Of a stretch of DNA of 32,000 bases, positions 39-27,798 are shown in pieces (positions within the stretch are counted from its first letter, which is position 1; each line of letters begins with the position of its first letter). The notes below the pieces were generated by a model, which saw only the letters and a program-made list of their open reading frames with translations, had not been told where the DNA came from and ran no database searches. The translations under genes were made by a program, and so were the position numbers. The stretch comes from Calditrichota bacterium (lineage in GTDB: Bacteria > Zhuqueibacterota > Zhuqueibacteria > Zhuqueibacterales > Geothermadaptataceae). The stretch is taken from contig QQUE01000014.1 of NCBI GenBank assembly GCA_008501765.1, forward strand, positions 141,299-173,298, given 5' to 3'.

Positions 39-3000
39 TTGATCATGAACTATTTAGGTATTGATGTGGGATCCGTATCCCTTGCCTATGTTTTAATTGA
101 CGAAGCAAACCAGATTCTACAAAAGGGGTACACATTTCATCGGGGAAATATCCTTCAGAGCATCGAACAGGAATTGGCAGCCATCGATTTTCAATCTGTC
201 GCCCAAATGGCCTATAACCACAGTAGTTCCGGATTTTTTAGCAAAGGGATAGTTGCGAACGAGCAGGTTGCTGCCATCGAAGCGATCAAATTTTTGAATC
301 CGGATGTTCGCAGTTTATTCTCTATTGGTGGGGAAACTTTTGGTCTCTATCTCTTCAACGATCAGGGCAATTATCAAAAATTCATTTCAAATTCTGCCTG
401 TGCAGCTGGAACCGGATCGTTTCTCGATCAGCAAGCTGAGCGGCTGGGATTGGCTGATAGTGCTGAACTCAGCGATTTGGCCGAATCCTTCACAGGCACG
501 CCCCCGAAAATAGCAACGCGCTGTGCTGTGTTTGCCAAAACCGATCTCGTTCACAATCAACAGCAAGGGCATTCTCTGGCTGCCATTTCTGCAGGTTTAT
601 GCAAAGGCATGGCCCAGAATATCGCAGACACACTTTCAAGCGGGCTTTTACTGCATAATCCGGTTATGGCCATCGGTGGCGTAAGCAGAAACAAAACTGT
701 TATGCATCATTTAGAGCAGCTCACAGGTAATAAAATCATTGTCCCGGATGATGCGGAAATCGCTCCTGCCCTGGGTTGTGCGATTATGGCCGCAACAGAT
801 AAACGACTTATCGCACCATTAAAAATCGCATCAATTGATGATTTAACAAATCGCACTGTTAGCGAAAAATCCTATTTCTTTCCGCCGCTGGAATCTGAAC
901 TAGGCGAATTCCCGGATTTTGATTCACACACACATTATGAGTCGGAAAATGTGGAAATCGATATTTACCACTTGCCAAAAAATCTGCGGGAAATTTCGGT
1001 TTTTATGGGTATTGATATCGGTTCGACAAGCACAAAAGCGGTGCTGCTGGAAGACAACGCGAATGCAGAAAATATTCTCCTCGGATTATACACACGTACG
1101 AAAGGACAGCCGGTAAAAGCTGTTCAGGCGTTGCTCCGCGTCTTGCGCGAAATTGAGGATGAACACGGATTGCATTTTGATTTCCGGAGTGTCGGAACCA
1201 CCGGATCAGGTAGAAAATTTGTGCAGAAAGTCATCAACGCAGACCTTGCTGTCGATGAAATCACGGCCCATGCCCGGGCTGCCATCCGGTTAAATCCCGA
1301 AACCGATACGATAATTGAAATCGGTGGTCAGGATGCAAAATTTACGGTACTAAAAAATGGGCAGGTCACCTTTTCGGTGATGAATTACGTCTGCGCCGCC
1401 GGCACAGGCAGTTTTATCGAAGAGCAAGCCAAACGCCTGAATGTACCGATCAATGAATACGCCCGCCGGGCTGTGGGGGCACGTTCACCACTAACCAGCG
1501 ACCGCTGCACGGTTTTTATGGAGCGGGATTTGAATCATTTTCTCAGCCAGGGTTATGGAAAAAATGAACTCTTGGCCGCAGCTCTGCATTCCGTGCGCGA
1601 TAATTATCTTTCCAAAGTTGCCCATCTCAGTAAAATTGGCAATGTCATCTATTTCCAGGGTGCGACTGCAAAAAACAAAGCATTGGTGGCAGCTTTCGAA
1701 CAGAAATTACAAAAGCCGATTTTTGTCTCGCGCTACTGCCACCTGACAGGAGCGCTTGGCGTTTGCCTGATGCTGCAGGAACAGCAATCCGGGAAATCGC
1801 AATTCCGCGGCGTGGATTTTTATAAGGAAACACTGATCGTAAAAGACGATGTCTGCGAACTATGCAAGAACCACTGCAAACTTAAAGAAATCACCATCGC
1901 CGATGAAAAAGTGGTGTGGGGTTATTTATGTGGGCGCGTGGAGGAAGACACAAAACCCAAAGCACGCAATCAATCTGGTTTCGATTTACTGAGCCGCCGC
2001 CGGCAGATATTCCGCCCTCCTTCCAAAAAAGAAAAATTGCCAGAAAAAGAATGTATTTCGTTATTGGAAGAAATCAAACAATTTGATTTTGAAGCTTCGG
2101 TTGAAAAACTAAAACAACTTAATTTTGATGTCTCGCTGGAAACCCTTTCGCGTTTTGAACTGGAACAGAGTTTGGAAAAATTAAAGGAAAATTTTAGCCT
2201 GAATTTGCTCTATTTGCGCCACAAAGTCCTTAGCGGCCATGTGCCTGAAATACAGGCAGTGAAAATAAACAAAGAAATTATCATCGGCCTGCCGAATGCC
2301 TTGTATATGCTGGAATATCTTCCATTTTGGCGATTTTTCTTTTCTCTTCTCGGCTATTCTGTTGTGACTTCGGTATTTAAAGAAGATTATTTGAATAAAG
2401 GCAAAGAGATCAGCGGGGCGGAATTTTGTGCACCAATGTCCAACTGGCATGGCCATGTCCACAGTTTGGCGCAGCGATGCGATTATCTGTTTCTGCCACA
2501 CATGCTTCTGGACGGGCGCACCGACAAACCCAAGTTTTACTGCCATTTTTCCAATTATGCTTCAGCCGTGGTCCAAAACCTGGAAAAATTTCCAATCACG
2601 CAGGAAGTGATCGATCCTTTAATCAATTTTTCGAAACCGGCTCTGGATAATATCAAAGCAATTTATGAAAGTTTTCCGGATGATTTACGCACCGCACAGG
2701 CTCCTAATGATATTCAAGTAGCTTACCACCAGGCCTGGAACTGGTTTAGTGAAAGACGATTAAAGTTGCAGGAAATCTTTACCGAACAGCACGATCCACA
2801 AACCGATCTTTCTGTCGTTTTTTTGGGACGGCCCTATATCATTATTGATCCGGTGATGAATAAAAACATCCCTCGTATTTTTAACGATCTCGGCGTGAAA
2901 ACCTTTTTTCAGGATATGATTCCAGCCCCGGATGTGGCATCCGGGAAACCGGGAAAAGAACTGGTCGACTGGAATCACTGGAAATTTGGCGATTCAATTT

Positions 3001-4472
3001 TACGGACCGCCGAGTTCGTGGCTGAAACACCGGGTTTGTACCCCGTTTTTCTGACAGCATTCAAGTGTGCTCCGGACGCATTTGTGCTGACATATTTTAA
3101 AGAGATTATGGATGCCTATGAAAAACCCTATCTGATTTTACAATTGGATGAGCACGGTTCCGGTGTCGGCTATGAAACGCGTATCGAGTCAGCCGTTCGT
3201 TCTTTTCGCAGCCAGTTAAAGTACAAACAGCAAAGCCCACAACATCCGGAAGATAAAAAAGTACACCGCCAGCCCTATGAAAATGGATGTGTGCTGATCC
3301 CTAATTTTGATCCGCTGGTCAGCGGCCTGGTCAGCAGCGCTTTTGAACAAGCGGGGTATGACGCCCGGTTAATTGAGGAGTCCACAGACACAGTGACCTC
3401 CAGTCTGCGCTTGAATGATGGCCAATGTTTGCCGATCAGTACAATTGTGCAGGGAGCCGTTGACATGATTAGGAAATACAACCTGCAACCACAGTCTACT
3501 TCCCTCTTTATAAACGCAATTACCAATATGGCTTGCAATTTCCCCCAGTACCCGCTCATGGGGAAAAAACTTTTGGAGCAGCGTGGTGACGGACTTGAGA
3601 AAGTGCGAATTTTCGCCACTGAATTTGATATGCGCAGCTTACCCTATGAACTCTTATTTGATGTTTACAGCGCTTACCTGCTCGGAGGTTTTCTGCGTAA
3701 GCTGGCATGCAAGATTCGGCCCTACGAAATTGTTCCTGGCCAGACAGATCAGACTATTGCGAGGGGGCACGACAAGCTTATGCAAACAATTAAAATGGGC
3801 TTGTCCAAGGAAAATGCATTTAGACAAATAGTTCAGGAACTTGGAGCTATTCCAGTGACGGAATCGTATGGCAATCGTCCCAAAGTCACAATCATCGGTG
3901 ACATGTACGTACGCGACAACGATGTTTTTAATCAAAACCTGGTGCGGGATTTGGAAGCGAATGGCGCGGAAGTTATTACAACTCCTTTGAGTTATATGGT
4001 ACGTATGATGGCAGAAATGCGATATTATGGTCTGAAGGTGAACGGGCAATATTTGAATTTAATGCGTAATAAACTTTTAATGGAAGTGCTGGAGTCTATT
4101 GAACGCCGTCATTTTCAAATTGCGAACACGGTTCTAAGAGAAAAATTTCCGGTTTATGATCAGACAATTCTGGACCAGTTAAAAAAATACAAGATATCCT
4201 TGAGCCATGGCGGGGAAACGGCGCAGAATATAATCAAAATATTCAGTATCTTGCAGCATGAAACAAATATCTCGATGATCATTCATGTCAACCCGATTTT
4301 TTGCTGCGCCGGAATGATTAGCGAAGCCTTTTTTAATGCGATTGAAAAGGATATTGGTATTCCAATTATTTCAATTACTTACGATGGAACATCCTCCAAA
4401 CGCAATGATATGTTGAAGCCATACCTTCATTTTATAAAGAATAAAGCCGGTAGAGCTGAAAATTTTGTATAA
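39..4472 (+). CDS. Large fusion protein: two BcrAD/BadFG-type ATPase (acyl-CoA dehydratase activase) modules followed by a 2-hydroxyacyl-CoA dehydratase-like / DUF2229-like C-terminal region
   Basis: Uninterrupted 1477-aa ORF. The activase/ASKHA signature occurs twice (LGIDVGSVS ... CAAGTGSF near the N-terminus; MGIDIGSTSTKAV ... CAAGTGSF about 320 aa later). A Cys cluster (CELCKNHC ... LCGR) follows the second module, and the long C-terminal part resembles dehydratase D-component-like proteins. The track start is TTG at 39. ATG at 45 (MNYLGIDVGS), preceded by GGGGAG, is the more likely start. Confidence 0.8.
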   Translation: MIMNYLGIDVGSVSLAYVLIDEANQILQKGYTFHRGNILQSIEQELAAIDFQSVAQMAYNHSSSGFFSKGIVANEQVAAIEAIKFLNPDVRSLFSIGGETFGLYLFNDQGNYQKFISNSACAAGTGSFLDQQAERLGLADSAELSDLAESFTGTPPKIATRCAVFAKTDLVHNQQQGHSLAAISAGLCKGMAQNIADTLSSGLLLHNPVMAIGGVSRNKTVMHHLEQLTGNKIIVPDDAEIAPALGCAIMAATDKRLIAPLKIASIDDLTNRTVSEKSYFFPPLESELGEFPDFDSHTHYESENVEIDIYHLPKNLREISVFMGIDIGSTSTKAVLLEDNANAENILLGLYTRTKGQPVKAVQALLRVLREIEDEHGLHFDFRSVGTTGSGRKFVQKVINADLAVDEITAHARAAIRLNPETDTIIEIGGQDAKFTVLKNGQVTFSVMNYVCAAGTGSFIEEQAKRLNVPINEYARRAVGARSPLTSDRCTVFMERDLNHFLSQGYGKNELLAAALHSVRDNYLSKVAHLSKIGNVIYFQGATAKNKALVAAFEQKLQKPIFVSRYCHLTGALGVCLMLQEQQSGKSQFRGVDFYKETLIVKDDVCELCKNHCKLKEITIADEKVVWGYLCGRVEEDTKPKARNQSGFDLLSRRRQIFRPPSKKEKLPEKECISLLEEIKQFDFEASVEKLKQLNFDVSLETLSRFELEQSLEKLKENFSLNLLYLRHKVLSGHVPEIQAVKINKEIIIGLPNALYMLEYLPFWRFFFSLLGYSVVTSVFKEDYLNKGKEISGAEFCAPMSNWHGHVHSLAQRCDYLFLPHMLLDGRTDKPKFYCHFSNYASAVVQNLEKFPITQEVIDPLINFSKPALDNIKAIYESFPDDLRTAQAPNDIQVAYHQAWNWFSERRLKLQEIFTEQHDPQTDLSVVFLGRPYIIIDPVMNKNIPRIFNDLGVKTFFQDMIPAPDVASGKPGKELVDWNHWKFGDSILRTAEFVAETPGLYPVFLTAFKCAPDAFVLTYFKEIMDAYEKPYLILQLDEHGSGVGYETRIESAVRSFRSQLKYKQQSPQHPEDKKVHRQPYENGCVLIPNFDPLVSGLVSSAFEQAGYDARLIEESTDTVTSSLRLNDGQCLPISTIVQGAVDMIRKYNLQPQSTSLFINAITNMACNFPQYPLMGKKLLEQRGDGLEKVRIFATEFDMRSLPYELLFDVYSAYLLGGFLRKLACKIRPYEIVPGQTDQTIARGHDKLMQTIKMGLSKENAFRQIVQELGAIPVTESYGNRPKVTIIGDMYVRDNDVFNQNLVRDLEANGAEVITTPLSYMVRMMAEMRYYGLKVNGQYLNLMRNKLLMEVLESIERRHFQIANTVLREKFPVYDQTILDQLKKYKISLSHGGETAQNIIKIFSILQHETNISMIIHVNPIFCCAGMISEAFFNAIEKDIGIPIISITYDGTSSKRNDMLKPYLHFIKNKAGRAENFV

Positions 4473-5773: not shown

Positions 5774-6415
5774 CTATTTGATAATCAAACTCACCCGCCG
5801 GTTGGCCTGCAATCCCCTGTTCGCCCCGATTTCGTCAATACGCAAACGGGTATCAGCATATCCCAGCGCAACAAAACGCTTGGGTTGCACATGTTTATTA
5901 ATCAGGTAACGAATCACATGCGTCGCCCTGGCTGCGGATAATTCCCAGTTGGATGGATAATCCGACTTTTTACTTAATGGCACCGTATCCGTGTGCCCTT
6001 CAACTTTTATATTCCGGTTGGCTACTTTTTCACTGTTTAAAATATCCCCGATTCCTCCCAAAATCGGAAAAGCGCCTTGCTTCAAATCAGCCTTGCCAGA
6101 GTCAAAAAGTATTTTATCCTGAAATGTGAGAAGCAATCCATCCGCGGTTAAGGACACCTCAACACTTTCCTGTAAATCATGCTCGGTAACCAATTTATTA
6201 ACCACTTTTTCTAACTCGTGTAGGGGCAATTTGTCACTCTTGCTAAAATATTCCATAATGGCTTCAAACTTGGCCTGATCCACCTGGGATATCGCAAAAA
6301 ACAGGACGAAAAAAGCGAGCAGCAAAGTCACCATATCACTGTAAGACATCATCCAGGCTTGGTTGTCCTTTGCGCGCGATTTCATTATTTTGTCATGAGG
6401 TAAATCGATTCGCAT
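5774..6415 (-). CDS. motB: MotB-family stator subunit with an OmpA-like peptidoglycan-binding domain
   Basis: The N-terminus SYSDMVTLLLAFFVLFFAI carries the conserved Asp just before a single TM helix. The C-terminal domain has the OmpA/MotB motif (GHTD ... NWELSAARA ... NRRV). The start lies 2 nt after the motA stop. Confidence 0.85.
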   Translation of the reverse strand: MRIDLPHDKIMKSRAKDNQAWMMSYSDMVTLLLAFFVLFFAISQVDQAKFEAIMEYFSKSDKLPLHELEKVVNKLVTEHDLQESVEVSLTADGLLLTFQDKILFDSGKADLKQGAFPILGGIGDILNSEKVANRNIKVEGHTDTVPLSKKSDYPSNWELSAARATHVIRYLINKHVQPKRFVALGYADTRLRIDEIGANRGLQANRRVSLIIK

Positions 6416-6417
6416 AA

Positions 6418-7260
6418 TTATGCCGCCTTTTTAAACAAGCCCTGTTTCTTTTGTAATGCCCCTTTGCCTGCGACTTTCATCAGTTTTTTACGCGAACCGG
6501 CGTTTAAATATGCCGCCAGCTTGTCGCGTGCAAAAATATAATTTTTCTTATCATAAATGAGCAAGATAGCCTCGATTTGCAGTGTTTCGCAGAGTAAATT
6601 CGTTTCGGCCTGTTCTGCAATCTTTCCGCCGATCGGTGCAAAAATCATATTGGCGAGAATCAATCCATAAAAAGTTGTGATAAGGGCAATGGCCAGGCCG
6701 GAACCGACATCAGACGGATTGGTTTGCAGTGTCAGTAACATATTTATCAGGCCGATCAGGGTTCCAATCATACCAAAAGCCGGGGCCGTTTGGGACATCG
6801 ACATAAACAGATCGCGTTGTTTTAACTCCCGGGAAACCTGCCATTTAACCTGATCTTCGAGCGTGGTTTTCACTTCTTCGCGTGTGTAGCCATTGACCAA
6901 CATTTGCAGGCCGTCTTTGAAAATCCACAGACCACGAACGTTTTTAAACTGAGCTTGCATAGCCTGAACACCATCGCGCTGCCCGATGCGAATCGCAGTC
7001 ACCATTTTATCGATAACATCGATATAATTGACCCGGCCCGAGCGGAAAATGATAAAATAGGACATGAATCCGCGAAAAACCTCCCGCGACGGATGCGAAA
7101 TAAAAGTTGCAGCGATCGTGCCGCCAAAAACGATGGCCACACCCTGCCAATTGAGAAAAACTTCCGGTGTTGCTTGCCCTGAAATAATTCCATAAGCAAT
7201 TAATGCCACACCTGCCATGACGCCTAATAATGTAAACACGGCTACCCTTTCTATTTTCAA
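6418..7260 (-). CDS. motA: MotA/PomA-family proton- or ion-channel stator subunit
   Basis: Four predicted TM helices with a roughly 100-aa charged cytoplasmic loop between TM2 and TM3, which is the MotA topology rather than ExbB/TolQ. Conserved prolines are present in TM3 (APAFGMIGT) and TM4 (FAPIGGK). A MotA-like C-terminal helix is also present. Confidence 0.85.
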   Translation of the reverse strand: MKIERVAVFTLLGVMAGVALIAYGIISGQATPEVFLNWQGVAIVFGGTIAATFISHPSREVFRGFMSYFIIFRSGRVNYIDVIDKMVTAIRIGQRDGVQAMQAQFKNVRGLWIFKDGLQMLVNGYTREEVKTTLEDQVKWQVSRELKQRDLFMSMSQTAPAFGMIGTLIGLINMLLTLQTNPSDVGSGLAIALITTFYGLILANMIFAPIGGKIAEQAETNLLCETLQIEAILLIYDKKNYIFARDKLAAYLNAGSRKKLMKVAGKGALQKKQGLFKKAA

Positions 7261-7268
7261 TTTAATTT

Positions 7269-7985
7269 TTATTCTTTGTAGCGTGCGACCAGCCCTTTTA
7301 ATTCGTCCAGCTCGGGATTAATTTTCAAAGCATTTTCCCAAGCACGAACGGCTTCATTCACCTCACCATTGACAAAATAAATTGACCCGCCGAGTGAATA
7401 GGCTGATGCTGTTTTTTTCTTTTCCAAACTGGAATTCAGAATTTTTAAGGCCTGATCGTATTCATTTTTATAAAAAAGTTGCTGTGCCAAATTGATATCC
7501 TGAATGATGTCGTCGGTCAAATCTTCACTCGGATCAAAAGGGGCAGCATTGTACGGTGAAGTTTTGGTGCTGTCTTTGGGGCCTAATTGCGTCAACACAT
7601 CATCCCCTTTTTTCACCTCCCACGTGCCATCGGGATGACGTTTCAAATCAAGATCAATATTCGTCGAAAGCGGATCGAGCACCATTTCGATATCCGTGTC
7701 TTTTTGATAAAACTTGACACTGATATAAGGATAACTGGTTGTCTTTTTAAGTTTTGCGCCGTCCAGCTCTGTCACGATCGTGGTTTCACGCTGTTTTTTC
7801 TCCGCCCGGATTGTAGAGTCCGCTTTTTCTTCGATAGCCATTATTTCATCTGGCGAAATCTCGGACGCATCGCCGGGGTTCGCGGGAATTTCCTTTTTCA
7901 CCGTGGCATTATTCCCCCCACAACTTAAAAGTAGGGTGGCCCAGGTTATAAATATAATTTTCACAAAAAGTTGTTTTAATAGCAT
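7269..7985 (-). CDS. TPR-repeat lipoprotein
   Basis: The track ORF extends to 8057 and overlaps the upstream gene. The ATG at 7985 gives MLLKQLFVKIIFITWATLLLSCGG with a lipobox (LLSC). The C-terminus has TPR-like helices (YDQALKILNSSL ... EAVRAWENALKINPE). Confidence 0.7.
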   Translation of the reverse strand: MLLKQLFVKIIFITWATLLLSCGGNNATVKKEIPANPGDASEISPDEIMAIEEKADSTIRAEKKQRETTIVTELDGAKLKKTTSYPYISVKFYQKDTDIEMVLDPLSTNIDLDLKRHPDGTWEVKKGDDVLTQLGPKDSTKTSPYNAAPFDPSEDLTDDIIQDINLAQQLFYKNEYDQALKILNSSLEKKKTASAYSLGGSIYFVNGEVNEAVRAWENALKINPELDELKGLVARYKE

Positions 7986-8013
7986 TTTATCATCCTGTTT
8001 AATAGAGCCAATA

Positions 8014-9162
8014 TTAAAATGAAAGCTGCAACAGCATGAGTTCATATTGCATGCCACTGATTTTCAGATTGAGTTTTTCACCGCTGGATTTTACTTCCTG
8101 AGATTCAAACTCTTTGCCGAGCACCATGCTCACGCCGGCCGAAAATGAAAATCGTTCTGTGAAATCTGTCCGCAAACCAACACTGATACTGGAAATATCC
8201 GGCATTTTCATGGCGAAGTGCCGCGTTAATGCAAAATAGGCAGAAAGCCAGTCAGAGCGGTTGCTTTTACGATTTTCGATCAGCGTCGAATAAAGCATCG
8301 TGCGCACATTGTAGGAAACAGGGATCGAGAAACCACCGGTGCGCGAAGAAGTCCCGTAAAAGCCTGTTTTCGTGAAAGCCGTGCCGTTCAATTCCAGACC
8401 GTCTGTGAGAAATGCCAGTCCAATTCGAAACTCGTAGCGCAAACGGCTTTTTTCCCAACGATATTGGTGCACACCGTAATAAATAGTTTGGTGTTTTAAC
8501 TGATTTGTCGCTTTGGCGTGAATTAAGGTATCACCGGCCGGTACATCCCATTCGATCGGAAAAACTTCCAGCCCGGCGATGAGTGATTTCATAAACGGAT
8601 TCGGAGATGGTAACTCGGGATCGTCCACATAAGCTGCAAATGAGCGTGACCACACGACTTCACTGGTGCCCACTTTGTTCAATTTCAAATCCAGCAGCAT
8701 GGCTTTTCCCGGCAAATAAGTAACGGCGCCGTCCATAAAAGCATCGATTCGCAGGCGTTTGCCTATTTTCCACAATTCATGTGGCGACGGCAATGTATTA
8801 ACGATGCGGAAGCTGCTATCTGTGGAGGCAATTTTCATCGTGTTCATTTCGGGCAATGAAACCATTGCCGGCATTTCCAGATTTCGAAAAATTTCTGCAA
8901 TCCGTGCTTCAAAGTGGGTTCGCAATGCGGGTGGGATATAGCGTTCATCTACCTTTAAATGATACACCGCAATACGCTCAAGATCTGTTCCGACTTCCGG
9001 GGCCGCTTGCGCCACTTGAACAAAAATATCTTCCATTAAATTAAAGAGGAGACTTTTCTGCACCTTTTTATTCTTTTCTTGGCCCGGAAGTGGTGCGGCA
9101 AAACCTAAAATGAATACAATGAAAGCGACCAAAAATCTGTTTAATCTGCATTTATTGCCCAT
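8014..9162 (-). CDS. Signal-peptide protein: periplasmic alpha/beta module (CsgG/LpoB/FlgO-like pattern) plus a C-terminal outer-membrane beta-barrel
   Basis: Signal peptide FLVAFIVFILGFAAPLPGQ. The N-terminal half shows the pattern RIAVYHL ... GKRLRIDAFMDGAVTY ... LLDLKLNKVGTSEVVWS, which parallels the CsgG-family protein at 11799-12725. The C-terminal half has amphipathic beta-strand periodicity and ends in the OMP signature ...LLQLSF. Confidence 0.55.
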   Translation of the reverse strand: MGNKCRLNRFLVAFIVFILGFAAPLPGQEKNKKVQKSLLFNLMEDIFVQVAQAAPEVGTDLERIAVYHLKVDERYIPPALRTHFEARIAEIFRNLEMPAMVSLPEMNTMKIASTDSSFRIVNTLPSPHELWKIGKRLRIDAFMDGAVTYLPGKAMLLDLKLNKVGTSEVVWSRSFAAYVDDPELPSPNPFMKSLIAGLEVFPIEWDVPAGDTLIHAKATNQLKHQTIYYGVHQYRWEKSRLRYEFRIGLAFLTDGLELNGTAFTKTGFYGTSSRTGGFSIPVSYNVRTMLYSTLIENRKSNRSDWLSAYFALTRHFAMKMPDISSISVGLRTDFTERFSFSAGVSMVLGKEFESQEVKSSGEKLNLKISGMQYELMLLQLSF

Positions 9163-9173: not shown

Positions 9174-10973
9174 TTATTTTACCATTTCTTTGCTGATAGC
9201 CGATTGCCGTACTGTTCGCATGAGCTGTCGGCGTGCGAGGGTAACTTCTTCATCTGTAACGTCGTTGCTGGCCTCAAGGCTGGCCTGAACCATCTCAGCA
9301 AGTTTATCTGGTAAAGCTTCGATTATCCGGTTCACGGTCGAATCATCGACATGGATGAGGGATTTTGCCAATAAATCGCGATCAACAGTAAAAGCCAATT
9401 CGCGTACTTTTTCAGCAGGCAGCTCAACCAGTTGGCTAAAAGTCATGTACTTTGCTTTGATCCGCTGTGATAAATTCAAATCTTGAGTTTCGATGTATTC
9501 CAGGATTTGCTCCTGATCAAAATCATCCATAAAATCAAGAATATTAACCAAGGCGTCAATGCCATCGGAGCGGACAAAACGCATCGATTCAACATCTTTT
9601 GCCCGGACGAGGAGTTGCCTCGCAATGTGCTGATAAACATCCGCCGGCACTTTCTCTACATTGCCCATTGCGGCAAGCGCGGCGGGTTGTTTGCGCGGCT
9701 CCAGCGATTTGATCAATTTATAAGCACGTTCAGGTTGCAACTGTGCTAAAACGATGGCCCGCACGCCGTCTTTCAATGGTTTAATCAGGTGCAATAACTG
9801 ATCATCTGACAATTGGTGTAAAAATGCCAAAGCATCGATTTCTTCTTCATTTCGGATAGCAGAAATGGCTGTATTTCGTAAATTCTCGTCAAATCGTTTT
9901 ATAAGCTCAGGCCCGGCTGTGACCACCTCATCCTCAGGCACTTCTTCCACATGCTGTTGCACATCGGCGGAAATTTTTGCGCCAAGATGCTCGGCAAGAA
10001 ATCCATTTAAATGTTTCGAAGTAGCCCGGAACAAAATGGCAGCATCCCGCGGACCATTGCGTTCATCGGTTTTCACCCATGTTTTAATAACCTGGGCAGC
10101 CGCTCTTGGTGTTCCGATTATCGCATCAACCACCGATGATTTTAGCGTGCGAAAGGCTGCTTCATCCGAGGAAGCTTCAGTCTCTTTATCTTGCGGTTTC
10201 TGCTCGGAGGAGGGAGTTGGCTCCGGCATTACTTTAGGACGTTCCGGACTCAATTTTTTCAGAATTGAATTCATCCCCCAAAAAAGAATAATTAAAAAGA
10301 TGCCGGCGATCACTGCCGCAAATATAAATGGCCGCCAATCCATGCCAGCCAATTGTTCGTCGGGAAAAAGCGATTGTGTGAAGGCTTCCTGTTTGCTGCT
10401 ATCGCGCAAACTTTTTGTACCCAATCGATTGAAATAATTGGCTTTAACCGGGAAATCAAATGCTTCGACTGACACCCGATCCCCACGTTTGGGATCCATA
10501 TCAGCAGAAAGAGAAACCAACCGCCGGATAAATGCCCAGTCCCCTTCGGTGAAACTTTTATCCACCAGCACATTGACATTTAACCGTTTCACTTGCATGC
10601 CGGAGTTCTCCGCCACTTCACGAAACTGGTCGTTTTCCTGCTCGTTGTCATTCCCCTGCCCGGGTATAAATGGTAAACCAGGCAAAGACATTACTTCTTT
10701 TTTCAACAAAACATCAGGAAGCGGCGGCAAGGGTTTGCGCTTGCGTACTTTTTCCAATTGCACATTGGCTTTAACTACAAACTTGGTTTCCGGGAAATAG
10801 GTGAGCAAGGCTGTTTCCAGGTTCCACGAAAGGTTCGCTTCCATCGTTTTTTCGATGCCCTCGAGAGTCTTTTCCGAAGCTGGAATTTGCGCGCTGCTGC
10901 CAACACAGGCTAATCCCCAAACCATTCCTGTAAAAAATAGTCGTTTAAGATTTCTGCAAAATGTTATTTTCAT
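9174..10973 (-). CDS. Membrane-anchored chimera: short FliF/YscJ-like periplasmic region, one TM helix, Pro/acidic linker, then a full-length FliG-like (N, middle, C) cytoplasmic region
   Basis: N-terminal hydrophobic segment (signal peptide or TM1). The periplasmic segment ends in VKRLNVNVLVDKSFTEGDWAFIRRLVSLSADMDPKRGDRVSVEAFDF, which matches the FliF C-terminal periplasmic pattern. TM helix RPFIFAAVIAGIFLIILFWGM. The C-terminal ~145 aa (DGIDALVNILDFMD ... ILEYIETQDLNLSQRIKAKYMTFSQLVEL ... ALPDKLAEMVQASL ...) align without gaps, by eye, to the FliG hinge, MFxF motif and C-terminal domain. Confidence 0.65.
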   Translation of the reverse strand: MKITFCRNLKRLFFTGMVWGLACVGSSAQIPASEKTLEGIEKTMEANLSWNLETALLTYFPETKFVVKANVQLEKVRKRKPLPPLPDVLLKKEVMSLPGLPFIPGQGNDNEQENDQFREVAENSGMQVKRLNVNVLVDKSFTEGDWAFIRRLVSLSADMDPKRGDRVSVEAFDFPVKANYFNRLGTKSLRDSSKQEAFTQSLFPDEQLAGMDWRPFIFAAVIAGIFLIILFWGMNSILKKLSPERPKVMPEPTPSSEQKPQDKETEASSDEAAFRTLKSSVVDAIIGTPRAAAQVIKTWVKTDERNGPRDAAILFRATSKHLNGFLAEHLGAKISADVQQHVEEVPEDEVVTAGPELIKRFDENLRNTAISAIRNEEEIDALAFLHQLSDDQLLHLIKPLKDGVRAIVLAQLQPERAYKLIKSLEPRKQPAALAAMGNVEKVPADVYQHIARQLLVRAKDVESMRFVRSDGIDALVNILDFMDDFDQEQILEYIETQDLNLSQRIKAKYMTFSQLVELPAEKVRELAFTVDRDLLAKSLIHVDDSTVNRIIEALPDKLAEMVQASLEASNDVTDEEVTLARRQLMRTVRQSAISKEMVK

Positions 10974-11247
10974 CCTGATTTTCCTTTATTGAAGAGTCTT
11001 ATCATTCATCGGAAAAATAGGAAAACACTTAAAATTAAAGCCCATTCGCAACAAAATCTTAAAAAGATAAATTGGCAGGAATGCAGAATTTTTCAGGACA
11101 GGAGTTAAACTTTTGTACGCCTGTTTATTGGTTGGATGATTTTTTTTGAAGAAAAATTGTGGGTGAAGTCCCCGGTTAATAAAATTTTTGATTAGGTCTT
11201 TAGCTCCGTTGCCTTTTCCCTGTTGGCCTTTGAAAAATGGCGTTAAG

Positions 11248-11530
11248 AAATTTTGGATTATTTCCGTTAAGAACCATTTTCTGTTTGAGCGCAGCGAGTT
11301 TAACCTGCTTTATTCACAAATATCTGTTAAAATATTCTTAACCTTTTGATAATTAGATATTTGAGATAAGACGAGAAGAGAAGTTAAGTTATCTATTAAA
11401 ATTAGTTCTCACAAAGCCACGGAGTTCACAAAGTTATGATTTATAAGTATTTAAATATTTTCTTTGCGGACTTAGTGCCTTTGTGTGAGAATTATTCAGG
11501 TTAAATGATTTAGGAAATAATCCAAAATTT
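11248..11530. repeat. Nested inverted-repeat element (MITE-like or structured RNA) in a long intergenic region
   Basis: Perfect 18-bp IR: aaattttggattatttcc (11248-11265) versus ggaaataatccaaaattt (11513-11530). Inner perfect 9-bp IR: tttaacctg (11299-11307) versus caggttaaa (11497-11505). Innermost imperfect 'CACAAAG' palindrome: ctcacaaagccacggagttcacaaag (11408-11433) versus ctttgcggacttagtgcctttgtgtgag (11462-11489). Confidence 0.6.
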
Positions 11531-11579
11531 ACGACTACCTGTTTGCTTCGCAATTAGTCATTTTTCGTCAGCCTTGATT

Positions 11580-11646
11580 TTGCTTCGCCGGCTTTCAGCT
11601 TTTTATTTCTTTTTTGATCAAGCAAAGCCAACGGCCGGCGAAGCAA
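11580..11646. repeat. GC-rich 13-bp perfect inverted repeat, with a third copy of the core nearby
   Basis: ttgcttcgccggc (11580-11592) versus gccggcgaagcaa (11634-11646). An additional direct copy tttgcttcgc lies at 11542-11551. Neither strand has a U-tract after the hairpin. Confidence 0.5.
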
Positions 11647-11798
11647 TAAGAAAAAATTAAATGGTTAATACTAAAGTAGTTATTTGCTTAAATGCGGAGT
11701 TAATGGCTCAATCAATAAAAATATTATATTGAATACCTGCATAACAGGTTTGGGAAATCGATTTTCTGTTACACAGATATCCAATATTTCATATCGTC

Positions 11799-12725
11799 CT
11801 ATTTATCGCGAACTATATCACTGCGGCTAAATCCACTTCCGGAAACAATGGAGCACTTCGAGGCTTTGCCTTTGCCAACGGAATTGCTGGTTACTTTAAT
11901 TTGACCAACTTTTTCTTCCTCGGATCCCAGAGAAAGCCCGGTGTCGGGATCGATGAGCTCTTCACCGGGGCGATAAACTGTGAACACGTCGCCAACTTTA
12001 ACGCCATTGGCACTTCCGGCGTTGATAATAATCGTGCCACCGCTCACTTTGACAATTTTTCCCTGCCATTTCATATTCGATGATTTATCATCGACAATTT
12101 TCATGATGTCTTCGATTGCCTGGCGCGTCGCTTTACCAATGAGAGACTGGTCGAACTTATTGCGATTATTAAAACTAAGTCCTTCTTTTCGGAAACTGAG
12201 GCCACGTTTTTTCTTTTCACGGCGAATATTTTCTGCCGACAAAATTTCTCCGGTTGTGGTATTCACCAGGCGCACGTCAACTGCCACGGTAACCGTCTGC
12301 GAACTCACACCAACACCAATCCCTTTGGCGGTACCCCCAACATCGCCTTTGGAATGCCCAAATTCTGTAACTGTTCCAATTACCGCAATTTCGACACCAA
12401 GCAATTTACCGGCCTGAGCGGCTGTTTGTGGGGTAACCAGACCACTCATTCCTAATTTCTGTTCTTGCATAATTTTGTCCAAAGCCGTGCGTTCGATAAC
12501 GGTATATTTACCCGTTTTTACCAATTCGGTTATCAACATATCCGCCATTCCGCGCCCAGGTCCCTGGCCAGTCCACCACATAACCCGGTGGTCTGTTTTG
12601 TCCTGAAATTCAAAAACAGCGATGCGTTTTTTCTTACCACCTTTTTCTGCAGCCATCAAACCGGACACTTGCAGCATCAGAATAGCGAAAAATAAAAACT
12701 GAATCAGGGAAACAACTTTCTTCAT
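11799..12725 (-). CDS. CsgG-family periplasmic/outer-membrane protein with an extra C-terminal beta-rich domain
   Basis: After a signal peptide comes KKKRIAVFEFQDKT ... GRGMADMLITELVKTGKYTVIERTALDKIMQEQKL ... AAQAGKLLGVEIAVIGTVTEFG ... VAVDVRLVNTTTGEIL, the CsgG-family pattern. The C-terminal ~90 aa (GKIVKVSGGTIIINAGSANGVKVGDVFTVY ...) form an added small beta domain. The signal peptide has no lipobox Cys. Confidence 0.7.
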   Translation of the reverse strand: MKKVVSLIQFLFFAILMLQVSGLMAAEKGGKKKRIAVFEFQDKTDHRVMWWTGQGPGRGMADMLITELVKTGKYTVIERTALDKIMQEQKLGMSGLVTPQTAAQAGKLLGVEIAVIGTVTEFGHSKGDVGGTAKGIGVGVSSQTVTVAVDVRLVNTTTGEILSAENIRREKKKRGLSFRKEGLSFNNRNKFDQSLIGKATRQAIEDIMKIVDDKSSNMKWQGKIVKVSGGTIIINAGSANGVKVGDVFTVYRPGEELIDPDTGLSLGSEEEKVGQIKVTSNSVGKGKASKCSIVSGSGFSRSDIVRDK

Positions 12726-15165: not shown

Positions 15166-15726
15166 ATGCAATCGCACAAATCAATGGATAAATTTACTAA
15201 CTTCAGGTCAATTGTCGAATCGCATCAGGAAAAAGTGCGCACTACCTGCTTCCGCTATGTTCATAATGCCGAAGATGCGGATGATATTGCTCAGGAAGTC
15301 TTCGTGCAAGTTTATGAATCCCTCACGCATTTTCGCGAAGACGCGGAGCTTTCCACATGGATTTACCGCATTGCCGTAAACAAATCGCTGGATTTTCTAC
15401 GCAAAAAGAAACGCAAAAAACGCTTTGCGCAACTTACTACTTTGTTTGGTTTTGATGAGGGAAAAGAGGAAATTATTTTACCGGCCAGCGGCGATCCACA
15501 ACAGGATATGGAAGCGAATGAACAAAAGCACGTTCTGAATACAGCCATCGAGCGACTTCCGGAAAACCAGCAGACTGTGATCACCCTGAGCAAATACCAA
15601 GGATTCAGCAACAAGGAAATTGCAGATATCATGAAGCTTTCTCTCTCCGCTGTTGAGGCGCTGATGCATCGGGCCAAAAAGAATTTGCACAAGCGATTGT
15701 ATAATTATTATGAAAAGATTGCATAA
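15166..15726 (+). CDS. ECF-family RNA polymerase sigma-70 factor
   Basis: Region 2 (DAEDIAQEVFVQVY ... WIYRIAVNKSLDFLRKKKR) and region 4 helix-turn-helix (LPENQQTVITLSKYQGFSNKEIADIMKLSLSAVEALMHRAKKNL). The true start may be the internal Met at 15184. Confidence 0.9.
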   Translation: MQSHKSMDKFTNFRSIVESHQEKVRTTCFRYVHNAEDADDIAQEVFVQVYESLTHFREDAELSTWIYRIAVNKSLDFLRKKKRKKRFAQLTTLFGFDEGKEEIILPASGDPQQDMEANEQKHVLNTAIERLPENQQTVITLSKYQGFSNKEIADIMKLSLSAVEALMHRAKKNLHKRLYNYYEKIA

Positions 15727-15829
15727 CACGCGCAAGTTTTGGATAAAAAAAACGTCCAAGGATGTAGTGTCAATTATTGCATGAAAAATGAACGTAAAAG
15801 TGCGTCGCATTTTTAAAGAGGGCACAATA

Positions 15830-16156
15830 ATGAATAAAAAAGAAAAAATCGAACAACAAATCCGCGAGACGCTGGATCAGTTTGAGCATGCAGATCAGCT
15901 CCCGCCCAATCCGTTTTTTTATACCCGGGTTAAAGCCAGATTGGATGAGAGGCATCAGCAAAGCCATGTTTTCTTCGCAATTCTTAAACCGGCTCTATTG
16001 GCAGTTTTGGTGGCCATGAATTTGAGCACAGCTTTTTGGTATGTGAGTGTAGATAATCAGGTAACCCAGGTTGATTCACATCAGGAATTAATAGAATTAC
16101 TGGGAAGCGATTTAAAGCTGGACAACAATCAAAGCAACATACTCGATTATAAATAG
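15830..16156 (+). CDS. Putative single-pass anti-sigma factor / membrane protein
   Basis: Position immediately after the ECF sigma gene. Short cytoplasmic N-terminus and one TM helix (FFAILKPALLAVLVAMNLSTAFWYV). I prefer ATG 15830, preceded by AGAGGG, over the track start at 15788. Confidence 0.5.
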   Translation: MNKKEKIEQQIRETLDQFEHADQLPPNPFFYTRVKARLDERHQQSHVFFAILKPALLAVLVAMNLSTAFWYVSVDNQVTQVDSHQELIELLGSDLKLDNNQSNILDYK

Positions 16157-16165
16157 GAATCTAAA

Positions 16166-16732
16166 ATGGACATTTTTAAACAAAACCGCTATTTGTGGAT
16201 TACAATTATTGTTTTATTGATAATGAATTTTACCGCGTTAGCGCTTTTATGGCTGGGAAGACCAGAAGCCAGAAAAATACAAGAGCGTCCGCCTGATCCC
16301 ATGGAAGAACAAATTCGAATACAACAATTATTGAAAAAGGAACTCAATTTCGATGAAACACAGAGCGAACAGTATTTAAAACTGCGCCGGCAACACCGCA
16401 ACCAGGTACAGCAATTACAGATGGATATCAGTCATATAAAAAAACAAATGTTCAATAAAGTTTTACAGGATAATCCCCGGCAGGAACTATCTGATTCTTT
16501 ATTAGCCCTTGCCCAGGAAAAGCAGGCTCAGCTTGAGAAGATTACGTTTCAGCATTTTTTAGACCTTAAAAAATTATGCAAACCGGAACAGCAGGATAAA
16601 TTAAAAATATTATTAAATGAATTTTTTCGTAAAAATGCACCAACTGGAATAAATAATGATATGCCACATCCACCTGCCGGCGCAAGACCTGCGCCACAAC
16701 GTGGTAATGAATCACCACCACCACTCCCCTGA
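16166..16732 (+). CDS. Membrane-anchored Spy/CpxP-family (LTxxQ-like) periplasmic protein
   Basis: N-terminal anchor YLWITIIVLLIMNFTALALLWL. Helical repeats with (L/F)xxxQ motifs (FDETQSEQYLKLRRQH ..., KPEQQDKLKILLNEF). Pro-rich tail. It is the third member of a sigma / anti-sigma / Spy-like trio. Confidence 0.6.
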   Translation: MDIFKQNRYLWITIIVLLIMNFTALALLWLGRPEARKIQERPPDPMEEQIRIQQLLKKELNFDETQSEQYLKLRRQHRNQVQQLQMDISHIKKQMFNKVLQDNPRQELSDSLLALAQEKQAQLEKITFQHFLDLKKLCKPEQQDKLKILLNEFFRKNAPTGINNDMPHPPAGARPAPQRGNESPPPLP

Positions 16733-16758
16733 CACAACAAATTATTCTCAACCATTAA

Positions 16759-16790
16759 GCCTTTCATCAAAAAATGAAGGGCTTTTTTTA
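16759..16790 (+). terminator. Rho-independent terminator
   Basis: gcctttcat-caaaaa-atgaagggc forms a 9-bp stem with one G-U pair, followed by T7. It lies 27 nt after the stop at 16732. Confidence 0.8.
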
Positions 16791-16815
16791 TTTGTAGTCC
16801 ATCCTTTTAAACTAC

Positions 16816-16848
16816 CTGCGCAAGTTATTTTTATTATCCGCGTCTAAA
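16816..16848 (+). promoter_or_regulatory. Candidate ECF-type promoter upstream of the efflux operon
   Basis: ctgCGCAagttatttttattatccGCGTCTAAA. It has the same CGCA-N18-CGTCTAAA spacing as the site at 15108-15140. It lies 43 nt before the GTG start at 16891, which is preceded by AAGGAG. Confidence 0.3.
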
Positions 16849-16890
16849 CTATTAAAGTGATTAACAAAACTGATAAGGAGTTAAAACAAA

Positions 16891-18174
16891 GTGAAAAAGA
16901 AAATATTAAAGTATAGAAGAAGTTTAGGTGTAGCCGTCATTCTCATGACATTGACTACTTACGCATTTGCTTATTTATTTAATGGATTAGAAAAATCTGA
17001 TTTCGTTCTCGAAACAACAATCGTAGAAAGAGGCACGGTAAGCAATATAATTACAGCTACCGGAACATTAGAAGCGACAAACACGGTTATTGTCGGTACT
17101 CAGGTGTCTGGCGTTATTGAAAAGATTTATGTTGATTTTAATTCAGAGGTAAAAAAAGGGCAAAAGATAGCGGAACTGGATAAATCGACCTTACAATCAA
17201 GTTTAGAAAATGCTGAAGCTGACTTATATAATGCACAGGCTGAATTCGAGTATCAACAAGCCAATTTTAACCGGAATGAAGCGTTTTTTAAAAAAGATCT
17301 GTTATCCGCAAGCGATTATGATTTGGCAAAATACAATTTCAAAAAGAGCCAGGCAGGCTTAAAGTCAGCCACAGCCAACTTGAATAAAGCTAAACGTAAT
17401 TTGAGTTATGCCACCATTTATTCACCAATCGACGGGATTGTCCTTAACCGTGCGGTTGAGGAAGGTCAAACGGTTACGGCCAGCATGAACACACCCGAAC
17501 TATTTACCATCACCAATGACCTTGCGGAAATGCAGGTCGAAGCCGATGTGGATGAAGCGGATATTGGCATGGTAAAAGAAGGACAACGGGTGGAGTTTAC
17601 GGTAGATGCATTTCCTGAAGAAACTTTTTCAGGAGAGATTACAGAGGTGCGGTTACAACCTACTGAAACATCAAATGTTATTACCTATACGGTGATTGTT
17701 TCGGCCCAAAATCCGAAATTAAAGTTAAAACCGGGTATGACCGCCAGTATTACCGATTACGTGGAAGAAGTGAATGATGTTCTGGTTCTGGCCGGAAAAG
17801 CTATACGATTTACACCGGATCGTGAACAAATGATGGATTATTTCAGCAGTCTTCCTGAAAGTGAACGGCCGCAACGTCGGTCCGGTAACCGTCCGTCCGC
17901 AACGGCAGAACAAGGCGAATCCCCGCAAGGGGAAGAGATGCCGGATAACCTGAAACGTGTATGGGTAAAAGACGGGTCAACTATAAAACCAGTAACGATT
18001 GAAACAGGCGTCACCGACGGTTCAAATATTGAAATTATTTCAGGATTAAACGAGGGTGACTATGTCATTACGGCCATGGAAATGGGTAGTACAACCAGCC
18101 CGGATAATGAGGATAGCGAAGAAACACAAAAAAGTCCATTCGTTCAGGAGCGTCCTGGTCGCCCAGGGAAATAA
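16891..18174 (+). CDS. Efflux transporter periplasmic adaptor subunit (HlyD/MacA family)
   Basis: N-terminal anchor, lipoyl-like hairpin halves (VSGVIEKIYVDFNSEVKKGQKIAELD ... ATIYSPIDGIVLNR), a coiled-coil hairpin and a beta-barrel domain. GTG start with a strong RBS. Confidence 0.85.
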   Translation: MKKKILKYRRSLGVAVILMTLTTYAFAYLFNGLEKSDFVLETTIVERGTVSNIITATGTLEATNTVIVGTQVSGVIEKIYVDFNSEVKKGQKIAELDKSTLQSSLENAEADLYNAQAEFEYQQANFNRNEAFFKKDLLSASDYDLAKYNFKKSQAGLKSATANLNKAKRNLSYATIYSPIDGIVLNRAVEEGQTVTASMNTPELFTITNDLAEMQVEADVDEADIGMVKEGQRVEFTVDAFPEETFSGEITEVRLQPTETSNVITYTVIVSAQNPKLKLKPGMTASITDYVEEVNDVLVLAGKAIRFTPDREQMMDYFSSLPESERPQRRSGNRPSATAEQGESPQGEEMPDNLKRVWVKDGSTIKPVTIETGVTDGSNIEIISGLNEGDYVITAMEMGSTTSPDNEDSEETQKSPFVQERPGRPGK

Positions 18175-18192
18175 GTAGTTGATTGATGACCC

Positions 18193-18228
18193 GGAATTAG
18201 GAAGTAGGAATTGGGAATTAAAAAAAAG
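18193..18228 (+). repeat. Four tandem GGA-containing heptamers followed by an A-run, in the adaptor-ATPase intergenic spacer
   Basis: ggaatta ggaagta ggaattg ggaatta (18193-18220), then a run of A. Confidence 0.6.
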
Positions 18229-18268
18229 GTTTTAATCCAGGGTAAATTTAAAATTAGAGAATAAAAAA

Positions 18269-19045
18269 ATGGAAAATAAAATAATCGAAATACAGAATCT
18301 GCAAAAAAATTACCGGGTTGGGACGGAAATTGTCAGTGCTTTGCGAGGAGTTAATCTTACAATAAATGCCGGAGAATTTGTGGCAATCATGGGCGCCAGT
18401 GGATCTGGAAAATCTACATTACTCAATATACTTGGCTGTCTCGACAAACCGACTGCAGGCGATTACTGGCTTGATGGGAAAAATGTCAACGTCCTAAAAA
18501 AAGATCAATTGGCCGATATTCGGAATACCAAAATTGGTTTCGTGTTCCAGTCGTATAACCTTTTACCGCGAACCACGGCATTGGAAAATGTGGAACTGCC
18601 CTTATTATATAATCCGAAAATATCAATCAAAATGCGCCGGGAAAAAGCGGAGCATGCTTTGGAAGCGGTTGGATTGGCTGACCGCATGAAACATCTTTCC
18701 AATCAGATGTCCGGCGGGCAACAGCAGCGTGTTGCCATCGCCCGTTCGCTGGTCAATGATCCTGTAATAGTTTTGGCGGACGAAGCGACCGGAAACCTGG
18801 ATACGAAAACCTCATACGAGATTATGGCCCTTTTCCAGGAATTAAATGATAAAGGCATAACTATCGGGTTTGTTACTCATGAACCAGACATAGCAGCCTT
18901 TACAAACAGAAATATAGTGTTTCGCGATGGACGGTTAATCAAGGATATTCAGATGAATAAAATAACAAATGTTGTGGATGCACTTGATCAATTGAAAGAC
19001 GAAGATACGCTACTCGATGAATTTGTTAATGTGTGTGTCGCATAA
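18269..19045 (+). CDS. ABC transporter ATP-binding protein (MacB/LolD type)
   Basis: Walker A GASGSGKST, Q-loop, signature LSGGQQQRVAIAR, Walker B VLADEATGNLD, H-loop VTHE. Confidence 0.9.
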   Translation: MENKIIEIQNLQKNYRVGTEIVSALRGVNLTINAGEFVAIMGASGSGKSTLLNILGCLDKPTAGDYWLDGKNVNVLKKDQLADIRNTKIGFVFQSYNLLPRTTALENVELPLLYNPKISIKMRREKAEHALEAVGLADRMKHLSNQMSGGQQQRVAIARSLVNDPVIVLADEATGNLDTKTSYEIMALFQELNDKGITIGFVTHEPDIAAFTNRNIVFRDGRLIKDIQMNKITNVVDALDQLKDEDTLLDEFVNVCVA

Positions 19046-19089
19046 ACAACACAATTATGAGTGAATGAACTCATTATTTAAACAAAAAG

Positions 19090-27741: not shown

Positions 27742-27798
27742 GAATAACAAATCCGGCGCGAAATTCGATCGCAATCTATGTCATTCCAGTTCTCAAAA

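Follow-up and report, generated by a model that had tools for sequence, protein, structure and literature searches.

A window of 32,000 nucleotides (nt) from a Calditrichota bacterium (assembly GCA_008501765.1, contig QQUE01000014.1, positions 141,299 to 173,298 of the forward strand) was found to carry five closely packed genes on its minus strand, separated by gaps of 2-28 nt and encoding, in order, a fusion of FliF-like and FliG-like sequence, a barrel protein, a tetratricopeptide repeat (TPR) lipoprotein, MotA and MotB (Table 1). The first gene, at 9174-10973, had been described in an initial annotation as a natural FliF-like/FliG-like chimera with its strand unstated; the plus strand of this interval gives a stop-riddled translation, and the open reading frame (ORF) lies on the minus strand, where all of the peptides quoted in that annotation were found. 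The 599-amino-acid (aa) product is identical to the database entry DWQ05_18565 from Calditrichaeota bacterium, annotated "hypothetical protein". The analysis confirmed that it consists of a predicted signal peptide, one FliF RBM3-type domain, one transmembrane (TM) helix, a linker and a complete FliG with its N, M and C domains. The layout first proposed held for the periplasmic part, the single TM helix and the Pro/Glu/Ser linker, and the all-helical part was corrected from about 310 to 328 aa. Residue numbers given here are those of the true protein; the homologue alignment and the structure model were made without Met1 and run one lower.

Table 1 Positions of the cassette genes and of the parts of the fusion protein in the window
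Feature	Residues (aa)	Position (nt)	Strand	Basis and remarks
FliF(RBM3)-FliG fusion gene	599 in total	9174..10973	minus	Heads the cassette; ORF plus Pfam FliG_C, FliG_M and YscJ_FliF_C
Signal peptide	1-28	10890..10973	minus	Predicted cleavage SSA/Q; basic n-region, h-region, small residues at -1/-3, Gln at +1
FliF RBM3-type ring-building domain	36-176	10446..10868	minus	alpha-beta-[insert]-beta-alpha-beta, ends KRGDRVSVEAFDFP; AlphaFold2, Foldseek, Pfam
Insertion at FliF beta-collar site	76-125	10599..10748	minus	Low pLDDT in monomer model
LPGLP hallmark	97-101	10671-10685	minus	Inside the collar-site insertion
Single TM helix	213-238	10260..10337	minus	WRPFIFAAVIAGIFLIILFWGMNSIL then KKLSPERPK; helix in AlphaFold2 model
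Pro/Glu/Ser-rich cytoplasmic linker	239-271	10161..10259	minus	pLDDT <50; variable in length and sequence in the alignment
FliG N-domain equivalent and helix NM	272-380	9834..10160	minus	Family-profile alignment, Foldseek to 3hjl
FliG middle domain	381-470	9564..9833	minus	Pfam FliG_M; hinge ...VRSDG
LKDG at EHPQ site	400-403	9765-9776	minus	Alignment register
FliG C-terminal torque domain	471-599	9177..9563	minus	Pfam FliG_C; Foldseek
Torque helix LPDKLAEMVQASLEA	554-568	9270-9314	minus	Within the FliG C domain
Gene 2, barrel protein	382 in total	8014..9162	minus	Signal peptide; LpoB-C/TolB-N-like alpha/beta domain ~aa 36-180; beta-barrel ~aa 190-382, ends ...LLQLSF
Gene 3, TPR lipoprotein		7269..8057	minus	Likely start MLLKQ... 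at nt 7985; lipobox LLSC; Pfam TPR_1/TPR_2
Gene 4, MotA		6418..7260	minus	PomA/MotP-like, large cytoplasmic torque-generating domain; Pfam MotA_ExbB 6e-23
Gene 5, MotB		5774..6415	minus	TM Asp (YSDMVTLL), plug, OmpA-type peptidoglycan-binding domain; Pfam MotB_plug 6e-18, OmpA 6e-16

Pfam searches with the fusion protein returned FliG_C (E = 7.1e-14, 52.4 bits against a cut-off of 23.3, aa 493-592), YscJ_FliF_C (E = 7.1e-8, 33.5 bits against 23.8, aa 115-174) and FliG_M (E = 6.8e-6, 26.7 bits against 25, aa 392-462); FliG_N reached 22.5 against a cut-off of 25 and was placed on the M domain. When the Protein Data Bank (PDB) was searched with phmmer, the best match was Aquifex FliG (3.5e-10), followed by the engineered Vibrio FliF-FliG fusion 8z4d (9e-9), both gap-free over ~200 residues. 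A family profile of 25 homologues matched T. maritima FliG at 2.8e-23 and was colinear over aa 294-597 with Salmonella FliG 22-319, indicating that all three FliG domains are present. This is also what the structure model gave: the top Foldseek match in the PDB for an AlphaFold2 model built on the homologue alignment (mean predicted local distance difference test score, pLDDT, of 75) was full-length Aquifex FliG 3hjl, with 310 aligned columns (E = 6e-9) that place the three ARM-like domains N, M and C in order, and the torque domain superposed on FliG_C in 1qc7 and 8ucs with a root-mean-square deviation of 1.5-1.9 Å. The earlier assignment of the C-terminal ~94 residues to the FliG C domain is borne out by the FliG_C and family-profile scores. 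An MgtE_N domain or a generic ARM repeat was considered for the C-terminal half and ruled out, as MgtE_N (E = 1.2e-5) scored more weakly than FliG_C and FliG_M and the colinearity extends over the whole of FliG. The protein thus resembles FliF plus FliG, yet it falls outside both families as their models define them: it scores 62.1 bits with the FliG equivalog model TIGR00207, whose cut-off is 226.7, and RBM1 and RBM2, the SctJ-homology region of FliF, are absent, with no match to the YscJ_FliF N-terminal Pfam model and none to the fliF NCBIfam model at E<1.

The residue register was taken from two agreeing alignments, one made with HMMER against Vibrio FliG and the other with hmmalign and an E. 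coli FliG sequence whose numbering was self-consistent. In both, EHPQ (125-128), the FliM-binding motif of the FliG middle domain, aligns to L400-K401-D402-G403, and the classical torque-helix charges K264, R281, D288, D289 and R297 correspond to I540, K557, A564, S565 and T573, so that K557 is the only charged residue among the five sites, as had been proposed. Of the 139 sequences that represent the family as a whole, 122 retain the E of EHPQ, 130 have R or K as the R281 equivalent and 64 have an acidic residue at the 289 equivalent. Judged from this alignment, the loss of EHPQ and of the acidic 289 is a peculiarity of the clade to which the window belongs (Calditrichota/KSB1) and not of the family. 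The replacement of EHPQ by LKDG had been read as a sign that no C-ring is present; the replacement stands, but because the loss of EHPQ and D288/D289 is limited to this clade, the argument for "no C-ring" rests mainly on the gene context described below. Within the clade, the EHPQ site is occupied by an equally conserved KPLKxG (aa 397-403, 9765-9785), and this conservation suggests a new contact rather than simple decay. A weak HMMER match of aa 284-301 (GTPRAAAQVIKTW) to the end of Vibrio FliF made this stretch a candidate for the C-terminal FliG-binding helix of FliF, which was provisionally set aside, as the profile aligns it with the first helices of FliG_N.

The hydrophobic N-terminus is most likely a cleaved signal peptide and not the first TM helix (TM1) of FliF, because an h-region followed by [ASG]-Q occurs in most homologues (49 of 60 distinct sequences). 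Where FliF has two TM helices, the fusion protein appears, from the sequence pattern, to have one plus this signal-peptide-like segment (SSA/Q). The positive-inside pattern KK...R that follows the TM helix gives it an N-out/C-in orientation. In the fusion protein (SSAQIP, aa 26-31, 10881-10898) and in gene 2 (~9070-9162), as in their homologues from loci L001-L070, the signal peptide mostly ends in [A/S/G]-Q. Under the "Q-rule", Bacteroidota-type signal peptidase I substrates carry an N-terminal Gln that is then cyclised, and the predicted ends of these two signal peptides fit it.

The periplasmic part (aa 29-212, 184 aa) was modelled as a single alpha-beta-beta-alpha-beta unit (in model numbering, alpha 37-59, beta 65-75, a disordered segment at 76-110, alpha 111-123, beta 126-137, alpha 143-156 and beta 166-171). 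Foldseek matched it with probability 1.00 and a TM-score to target of 0.53-0.59 to the FliF RBM3/S-ring entries 8z5v, 6sd1 and 8z4g, which ranked above an injectisome PrgK-type entry, and an RBM3 domain with the C-terminal ...RGD...F motif is supported by YscJ_FliF_C as well as by Foldseek. The earlier recognition of a FliF pattern at the end of a periplasmic part much shorter than that of FliF was therefore correct, a FliF/YscJ-like fold was recovered, and the part is, on the model, specifically one RBM3-like domain. At the site of the FliF beta-collar it carries a 50-aa insertion, roughly half the length of the collar and predicted to be disordered in the monomer. The LPG(L)P motif within this insertion is nearly invariant, with P98 in 137 and G99 in 138 of the 139 family members, and R-G-D and F-P are further hallmarks of the family at the end of RBM3.

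The fusion is a genuine single polypeptide and no artefact of assembly or frameshift, since ~140 independent full-length sequences (580-730 aa, from many assemblies) have the same architecture. A word-indexed search gave 29 close relatives in metagenome-assembled genomes (MAGs) of Calditrichota and KSB1 plus one Elusimicrobiota protein at 27% identity, a homologue search with the 139-sequence alignment returned the same 29 proteins only, and among 185,579 species genomes 19 loci were detected, every one of them in a MAG. When 1.84 billion cluster representatives were searched exhaustively with HMMER, 197 proteins scored below 1e-30, and about 190 full-length clusters at 50% identity were obtained; the best 150 of the 197 were almost all 580-730 aa long with full-length matches. 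The family sequences fall into at least 24 groups at ~28% identity. Exact look-up of organism labels added Gammaproteobacteria and Pseudomonadota MAGs, and a marine group was labelled Balneolaceae/Balneola and Flavobacteriia/Bacteroidota, with contigs of up to 3.4 Mb, the length of the one that carries MBR9918841.1; in all, the labels span Calditrichota, KSB1, Balneolaceae, Bacteroidota, Elusimicrobiota and Pseudomonadota assemblies. Their database names are "hypothetical", "FliG C-terminal domain-containing protein" or "FliG". The full-text literature outside subscription-only papers yielded no description of the family. The number, spread and conservation of these sequences indicate that the family is large and under selection.

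The stator genes of the cassette are of flagellar type. MotA has four TM helices and a large cytoplasmic domain, and P160 and P209, the equivalents of P173 and P222, are both conserved; MotB has the TM Asp, the plug and an OmpA-like domain, and its Asp, its plug and the motif NWELSxAR...NRRV are invariant over 17 loci. MotA matched MotA of PDB entry 6ysf at 3.6e-37 and the NCBIfam model MotP at 5.5e-42 (143.6 bits against an equivalog cut-off of 394), and for MotB the best model was MotS (165.5 bits against 264); neither protein reached an equivalog-level score with a named MotA/PomA/MotP or MotB/MotS model. The TolQ and ExbB models matched MotA at only 4.6e-4 and 6.5e-3, and the protein, at 280 aa, is without the long ZorA tail. 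At the positions of R90 and E98 it has Q94 and Q102, so that neither charge is kept. In the clade as a whole, Q or H takes the place of R90 and the residue at the E98 position varies but is uncharged, whereas the MotA of other clades of the family has K/R at 90 or D/E at 98. In an Elusimicrobiota MAG (L002, 12148-13155) the cassette MotB carries a C-terminal TPR extension of ~120 aa, and an F-type ATPase operon comes directly after it; this MotB-TPR fusion hints that TPR modules may act at the stator.

The protein encoded by gene 2 has zero Pfam matches. Its AlphaFold2 model (pLDDT 79) was matched by Foldseek to LpoB (4q6z, TM-score 0.65), to TolB (E = 1.6e-6) and to OmpA/OmpX/Ail/OmpW barrels, and the product is predicted to be an outer-membrane protein because of its small OmpA/OmpX/OmpW-like beta-barrel and ...LSF end. 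Gene 2 always follows the fusion gene in the loci compared. The gene 3 product has a disordered N-terminal tether, a beta-rich middle and C-terminal TPRs, and its homologues are taken to be lipoproteins because nearly all have a hydrophobic stretch followed by Cys.

All 17 loci of the first set that were long enough kept the gene order, among them the Elusimicrobiota locus at 27% identity, and 48 further loci, again with the five-gene cassette, came from a metagenome scan that used the largest distant group as its seed; the gene neighbourhoods of distant members come from this single scan. The same order was seen in ~60 fetched loci; when these were reduced to 30 dereplicated locus groups, the five cassette genes recurred in 28, 25, 21, 20 and 19 of them, and any other gene family in at most four. 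No FliM/FliN/FlhA-type or other flagellar or export gene was found within ±8-10 kb in these 30 contexts. The pairwise identities of the five cassette proteins are mutually correlated (r = 0.84-0.97).

The residues on the two sides of the expected rotor-stator contact, in FliG and in MotA, were compared across paired loci. In the 11 distinct pairs with Glu at the FliG-289 equivalent, MotA always has Lys or Arg at its 90 equivalent; in the ~27 pairs without an acidic residue at FliG-289, it always has Gln or His there; the Elusimicrobiota locus differs, with Asp at the FliG-288 equivalent and Glu at MotA 98. This pairing mirrors the R90-D289 pair, which was defined genetically in E. coli (cited in PMC12505986). 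The coupled pairs are the strongest computational sign that the cassette MotA acts on the torque helix of the fusion protein. The initial annotation had supposed a stator interface co-evolved with the adjacent MotA, and both the Gln residues at R90/E98 and the 289-90 pairing across loci support this.

The domain homologies, the conserved cassette, the intact ion-channel residues and the coupled MotA-FliG changes make it reasonably probable, though far from assured, that the cassette encodes a self-contained, ion-driven rotor-stator machine with a flagellar-type torque core that is not a flagellum. We infer the following mode of action. The signal peptide would export the fusion protein and, once cleaved, leave a single-pass membrane protein, copies of which would assemble into a ring with the RBM3-type domains in the periplasm and the FliG domains in the cytoplasm, one FliG per subunit by construction. 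MotA and MotB would form a peptidoglycan-anchored 5:2 stator in which ion flow past the MotB Asp turns the MotA pentamer, and the cytoplasmic domain of MotA would engage the torque helix of the FliG C domain and drive the ring round in the membrane. The output is placed at the periplasmic face of the ring, because the cassette is without export gate, rod, hook and filament, and the best candidate for the output contact would be the LPGLP loop at the beta-collar site. Extended peptides are the typical ligands of TPR domains, and the TPR lipoprotein is therefore a plausible partner of this loop. Together with the outer-membrane barrel, it may receive the motion of the ring; alternatively, the two proteins may serve as a stator scaffold, like MotX, PflA/B and FlgP in elaborate flagellar motors. 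The physiological output might be surface motility or an outer-membrane process.

Several points weigh against a rotary machine of this kind. The evidence is entirely computational and all of the hosts seen are uncultured; the AlphaFold2 monomer model has a predicted TM-score (pTM) of 0.31 and is uninformative on oligomeric state; and a ring without an axle has no obvious load. The coupling between MotA and FliG is held to be consistent rather than proven because the pattern may stem from just one or two evolutionary events, and since both canonical charge pairs are gone from the clade of the window, the classical electrostatic torque contacts cannot be assumed there. One subgroup of loci (L062-L068) has the fusion, barrel and TPR genes without adjacent MotAB genes. 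Where MotAB would be expected, these loci have a MarR regulator and a SusC-like TonB-dependent receptor (e.g. L063, 7869-11658), and they may have stator genes at another site or share them with a different system. Cultured Balneola are motile. Some KSB1 clades encode flagella (PMC9012183), and the hosts may have true flagella as well.

Among the alternatives, a force transducer of the Tol-Pal/TonB type has the most in its favour, although we regard it as unlikely. MotAB would then energise conformational work of the FliF-FliG protein on the barrel and the TPR lipoprotein, resulting in outer-membrane tethering, constriction or transport. The parts list suits such a device, with a channel of the MotA/TolQ family, an OmpA-type peptidoglycan binder, a TolB-N/LpoB-like domain and a CpoB-like TPR protein, and no axial structure is encoded. 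The transducer itself, however, is no extended protein like TolA or TonB but a ring-building FliF domain joined to a complete FliG, whose torque helix is conserved; the stator is MotA-type with its large cytoplasmic domain and weak TolQ and ExbB scores; and the MotA-90/FliG-289 coupling points to a contact of the flagellar type. Another reading takes the protein for a divergent flagellar component, an additional or substitute MS-ring/rotor with dedicated stators that would serve a second or unusual flagellar system of the host. In its favour, every recognisable homology is flagellar, IMG and PGAP name some members FliG or MotB, certain KSB1 clades have flagella genes and a methyl-accepting chemotaxis protein gene lies near the cassette in L047. 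We consider this improbable: RBM1 and RBM2, which hold the export gate in FliF, are missing, a probable signal peptide stands in place of TM1, none of the 30 independent contexts has another flagellar gene linked to the cassette, the FliG equivalog score is far below the TIGR00207 cut-off (62 against 226.7) and EHPQ is absent here. The cassette also occurs in MAGs labelled Flavobacteriia and Bacteroidota, according to the labels of its MotB proteins, and these groups are normally without flagella.

Two further readings carry very little weight. A Zorya-like anti-phage or other conflict system driven by a MotAB-like motor has in its favour the variable genomic contexts of the cassette and the match of MotB to ZorB models (3e-20), but PADLOC was blank for MotA, the fusion protein and the products of genes 2 and 3, the ZorB matches reflect generic MotB similarity, effector domains such as nucleases or helicases are absent and the 280-aa MotA has no ZorA tail. 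Zorya or another defence system is accordingly highly improbable, and was rejected. Still less probable is a functionless, decaying relic of a lost flagellum, for which the truncated FliF part and the loss of canonical charges in the clade of the window might speak. Open, full-length genes in ~190 clusters at 50% identity from several phyla, the near-invariant LPGLP, RGD, R281 equivalent, MotB Asp and MotA prolines, and the preserved gene order effectively refute it.

In comparison with the flagellar motor, the cassette shares the RBM3 domain, a three-domain FliG with its torque helix, a MotA/MotB stator with plug, TM Asp and OmpA domain, a FliF:FliG ratio of 1:1 and, in part of the family, apparently the MotA-90/FliG-289 type of contact. 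Unlike the flagellar motor, it has FliF and FliG in one polypeptide without RBM1, RBM2, TM1 or a full beta-collar, there are no linked FliM/FliN, export apparatus, rod, hook or filament genes around it, and an outer-membrane barrel and a TPR lipoprotein are the conserved partners instead. In the clade of the window, EHPQ, four of the five torque-helix charges and R90 and E98 of MotA are replaced as well. Covalently joined FliF and FliG are also known from the laboratory, and engineered Salmonella FliF-FliG fusions support motor function. The engineered proteins (Salmonella, Vibrio; 8z4d/8z4g) are like the present one in that linked FliF-FliG assembles rings, and unlike it in being laboratory constructs in which full-length FliF is joined to FliG by a deletion or linker inside a complete flagellum. 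The claim that the fusion is not a normal gene organisation needs qualifying: the two proteins are indeed covalently joined, but such a fusion is not as such unprecedented, because a natural one has already been described in Chlamydiaceae (Bergeron 2016, PeerJ, PMC4768692). That protein, the nearest natural precedent, has ~330 aa, two TM helices, RBM2 plus one more RBM and the M domain only of FliG, hence no torque domain; FliF, FliL and FlhA are the only Chlamydia flagellar genes listed there, with no MotAB partner reported, and the fusion was proposed to work with the injectisome (PMC4768692). Both are natural, covalent unions of a shortened FliF with FliG-like sequence in hosts not thought to be flagellated. 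The present protein is set apart, by that published description (PMC4768692), by its 599 aa, its single RBM3-type domain and its complete FliG.

Puente-Lelievre et al. 2025 (PMC12505986) took a large cytoplasmic torque-generating domain, a plug and an OmpA-like peptidoglycan-binding domain as diagnostic of flagellar stators (FIT, TGI4 class) and placed non-flagellar relatives in a structurally different "generic" group; FliG appears once in the main text of that paper, in the introduction. The cassette MotAB has the diagnostic features of the FIT/TGI4 stators according to PMC12505986, yet it lies in a non-flagellar gene context and, here, is without R90 and E98. With Tol-Pal, ExbBD-TonB, GldLM, AglRQS and Zorya it has in common an ion-driven motor of the MotA/ExbB family that serves an envelope-spanning process, and with Tol-Pal in particular a set of parts that includes a TolB-N-like domain, a TPR protein and an OmpA domain. 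None of these 5:2 systems, however, drives FliG or a FliF-type ring, and the cassette A subunit is clearly MotA-type, with weak TolQ/ExbB scores and no ZorA match.

To our knowledge, torque generation between FliG and MotA is known only within flagella. It is possible, though we put the chance at slightly less than even, that the cassette represents the first non-flagellar machine with a FliG-MotA torque interface, a widespread and autonomous five-gene rotary motor that would power an envelope or surface process in bacteria of the FCB group and others; in the boldest form of this proposal, the cassette would descend from or preserve a rotor-stator module that predates the union with type III export. 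If this were true, the torque module would have an independent life and a second biological use, and the cassette would offer a comparator for the union of rotor, stator and secretion system, whether as an ancestral state or as a derived reduction like that of Chlamydia. It would also provide a simpler ring-plus-stator assembly with a fixed FliF:FliG ratio of 1:1 for studies of torque, and would make "flagellar-type" MotAB features or a FliG annotation questionable as evidence of motility when traits are inferred from metagenomes. Sister clades have kept one or the other of the charge pairs that are both missing here, and this variation amounts to a natural experiment on the requirements of the rotor-stator contact.

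Upstream of the fusion gene lies an AT-rich spacer of 825 nt (10974-11798) with two long hairpins (11407-11488 and 11577-11649); a search of it for a riboswitch or known RNA matched no Rfam family. The next gene (11799-12725, minus strand) encodes a CsgG/LpoB-like lipoprotein with weak FlgT_C and FlgO matches and the same fold as the N-terminal domain of gene 2. LpoB-fold genes upstream of the cassette also occur in L002, and a CsgG-like ORF in L041. This lipoprotein was considered as a sixth member of the cassette and rejected as a general feature, being missing from most loci.

The rest of the window has functions unrelated to the cassette; those described here are encoded on the plus strand. 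A 1477-aa BcrAD/BadFG-type coenzyme A-enzyme activase fused to DUF2229, with an FGGY-like segment, is encoded at 39-4472. The region 15166-20322 contains an extracytoplasmic function (ECF) sigma factor and a putative anti-sigma partner, followed by a MacAB-type ABC exporter with its membrane-fusion protein. The gene at 23755-26094 encodes 779 aa in which a CotH kinase domain and a lamin-tail domain are joined to a C-terminal sorting domain for type IX secretion; given this sorting domain, the host has a type IX secretion system, which fits the FCB group. A polyphosphate-related pair of VTC-domain and DUF4956 genes (26237-27741) is followed by three short overlapping ORFs in different frames (27738-28556), one of which matches positions 203-284 of 379 of a Mutator/IS256-type transposase, and which together look like the remnant of a frame-shifted transposase gene.

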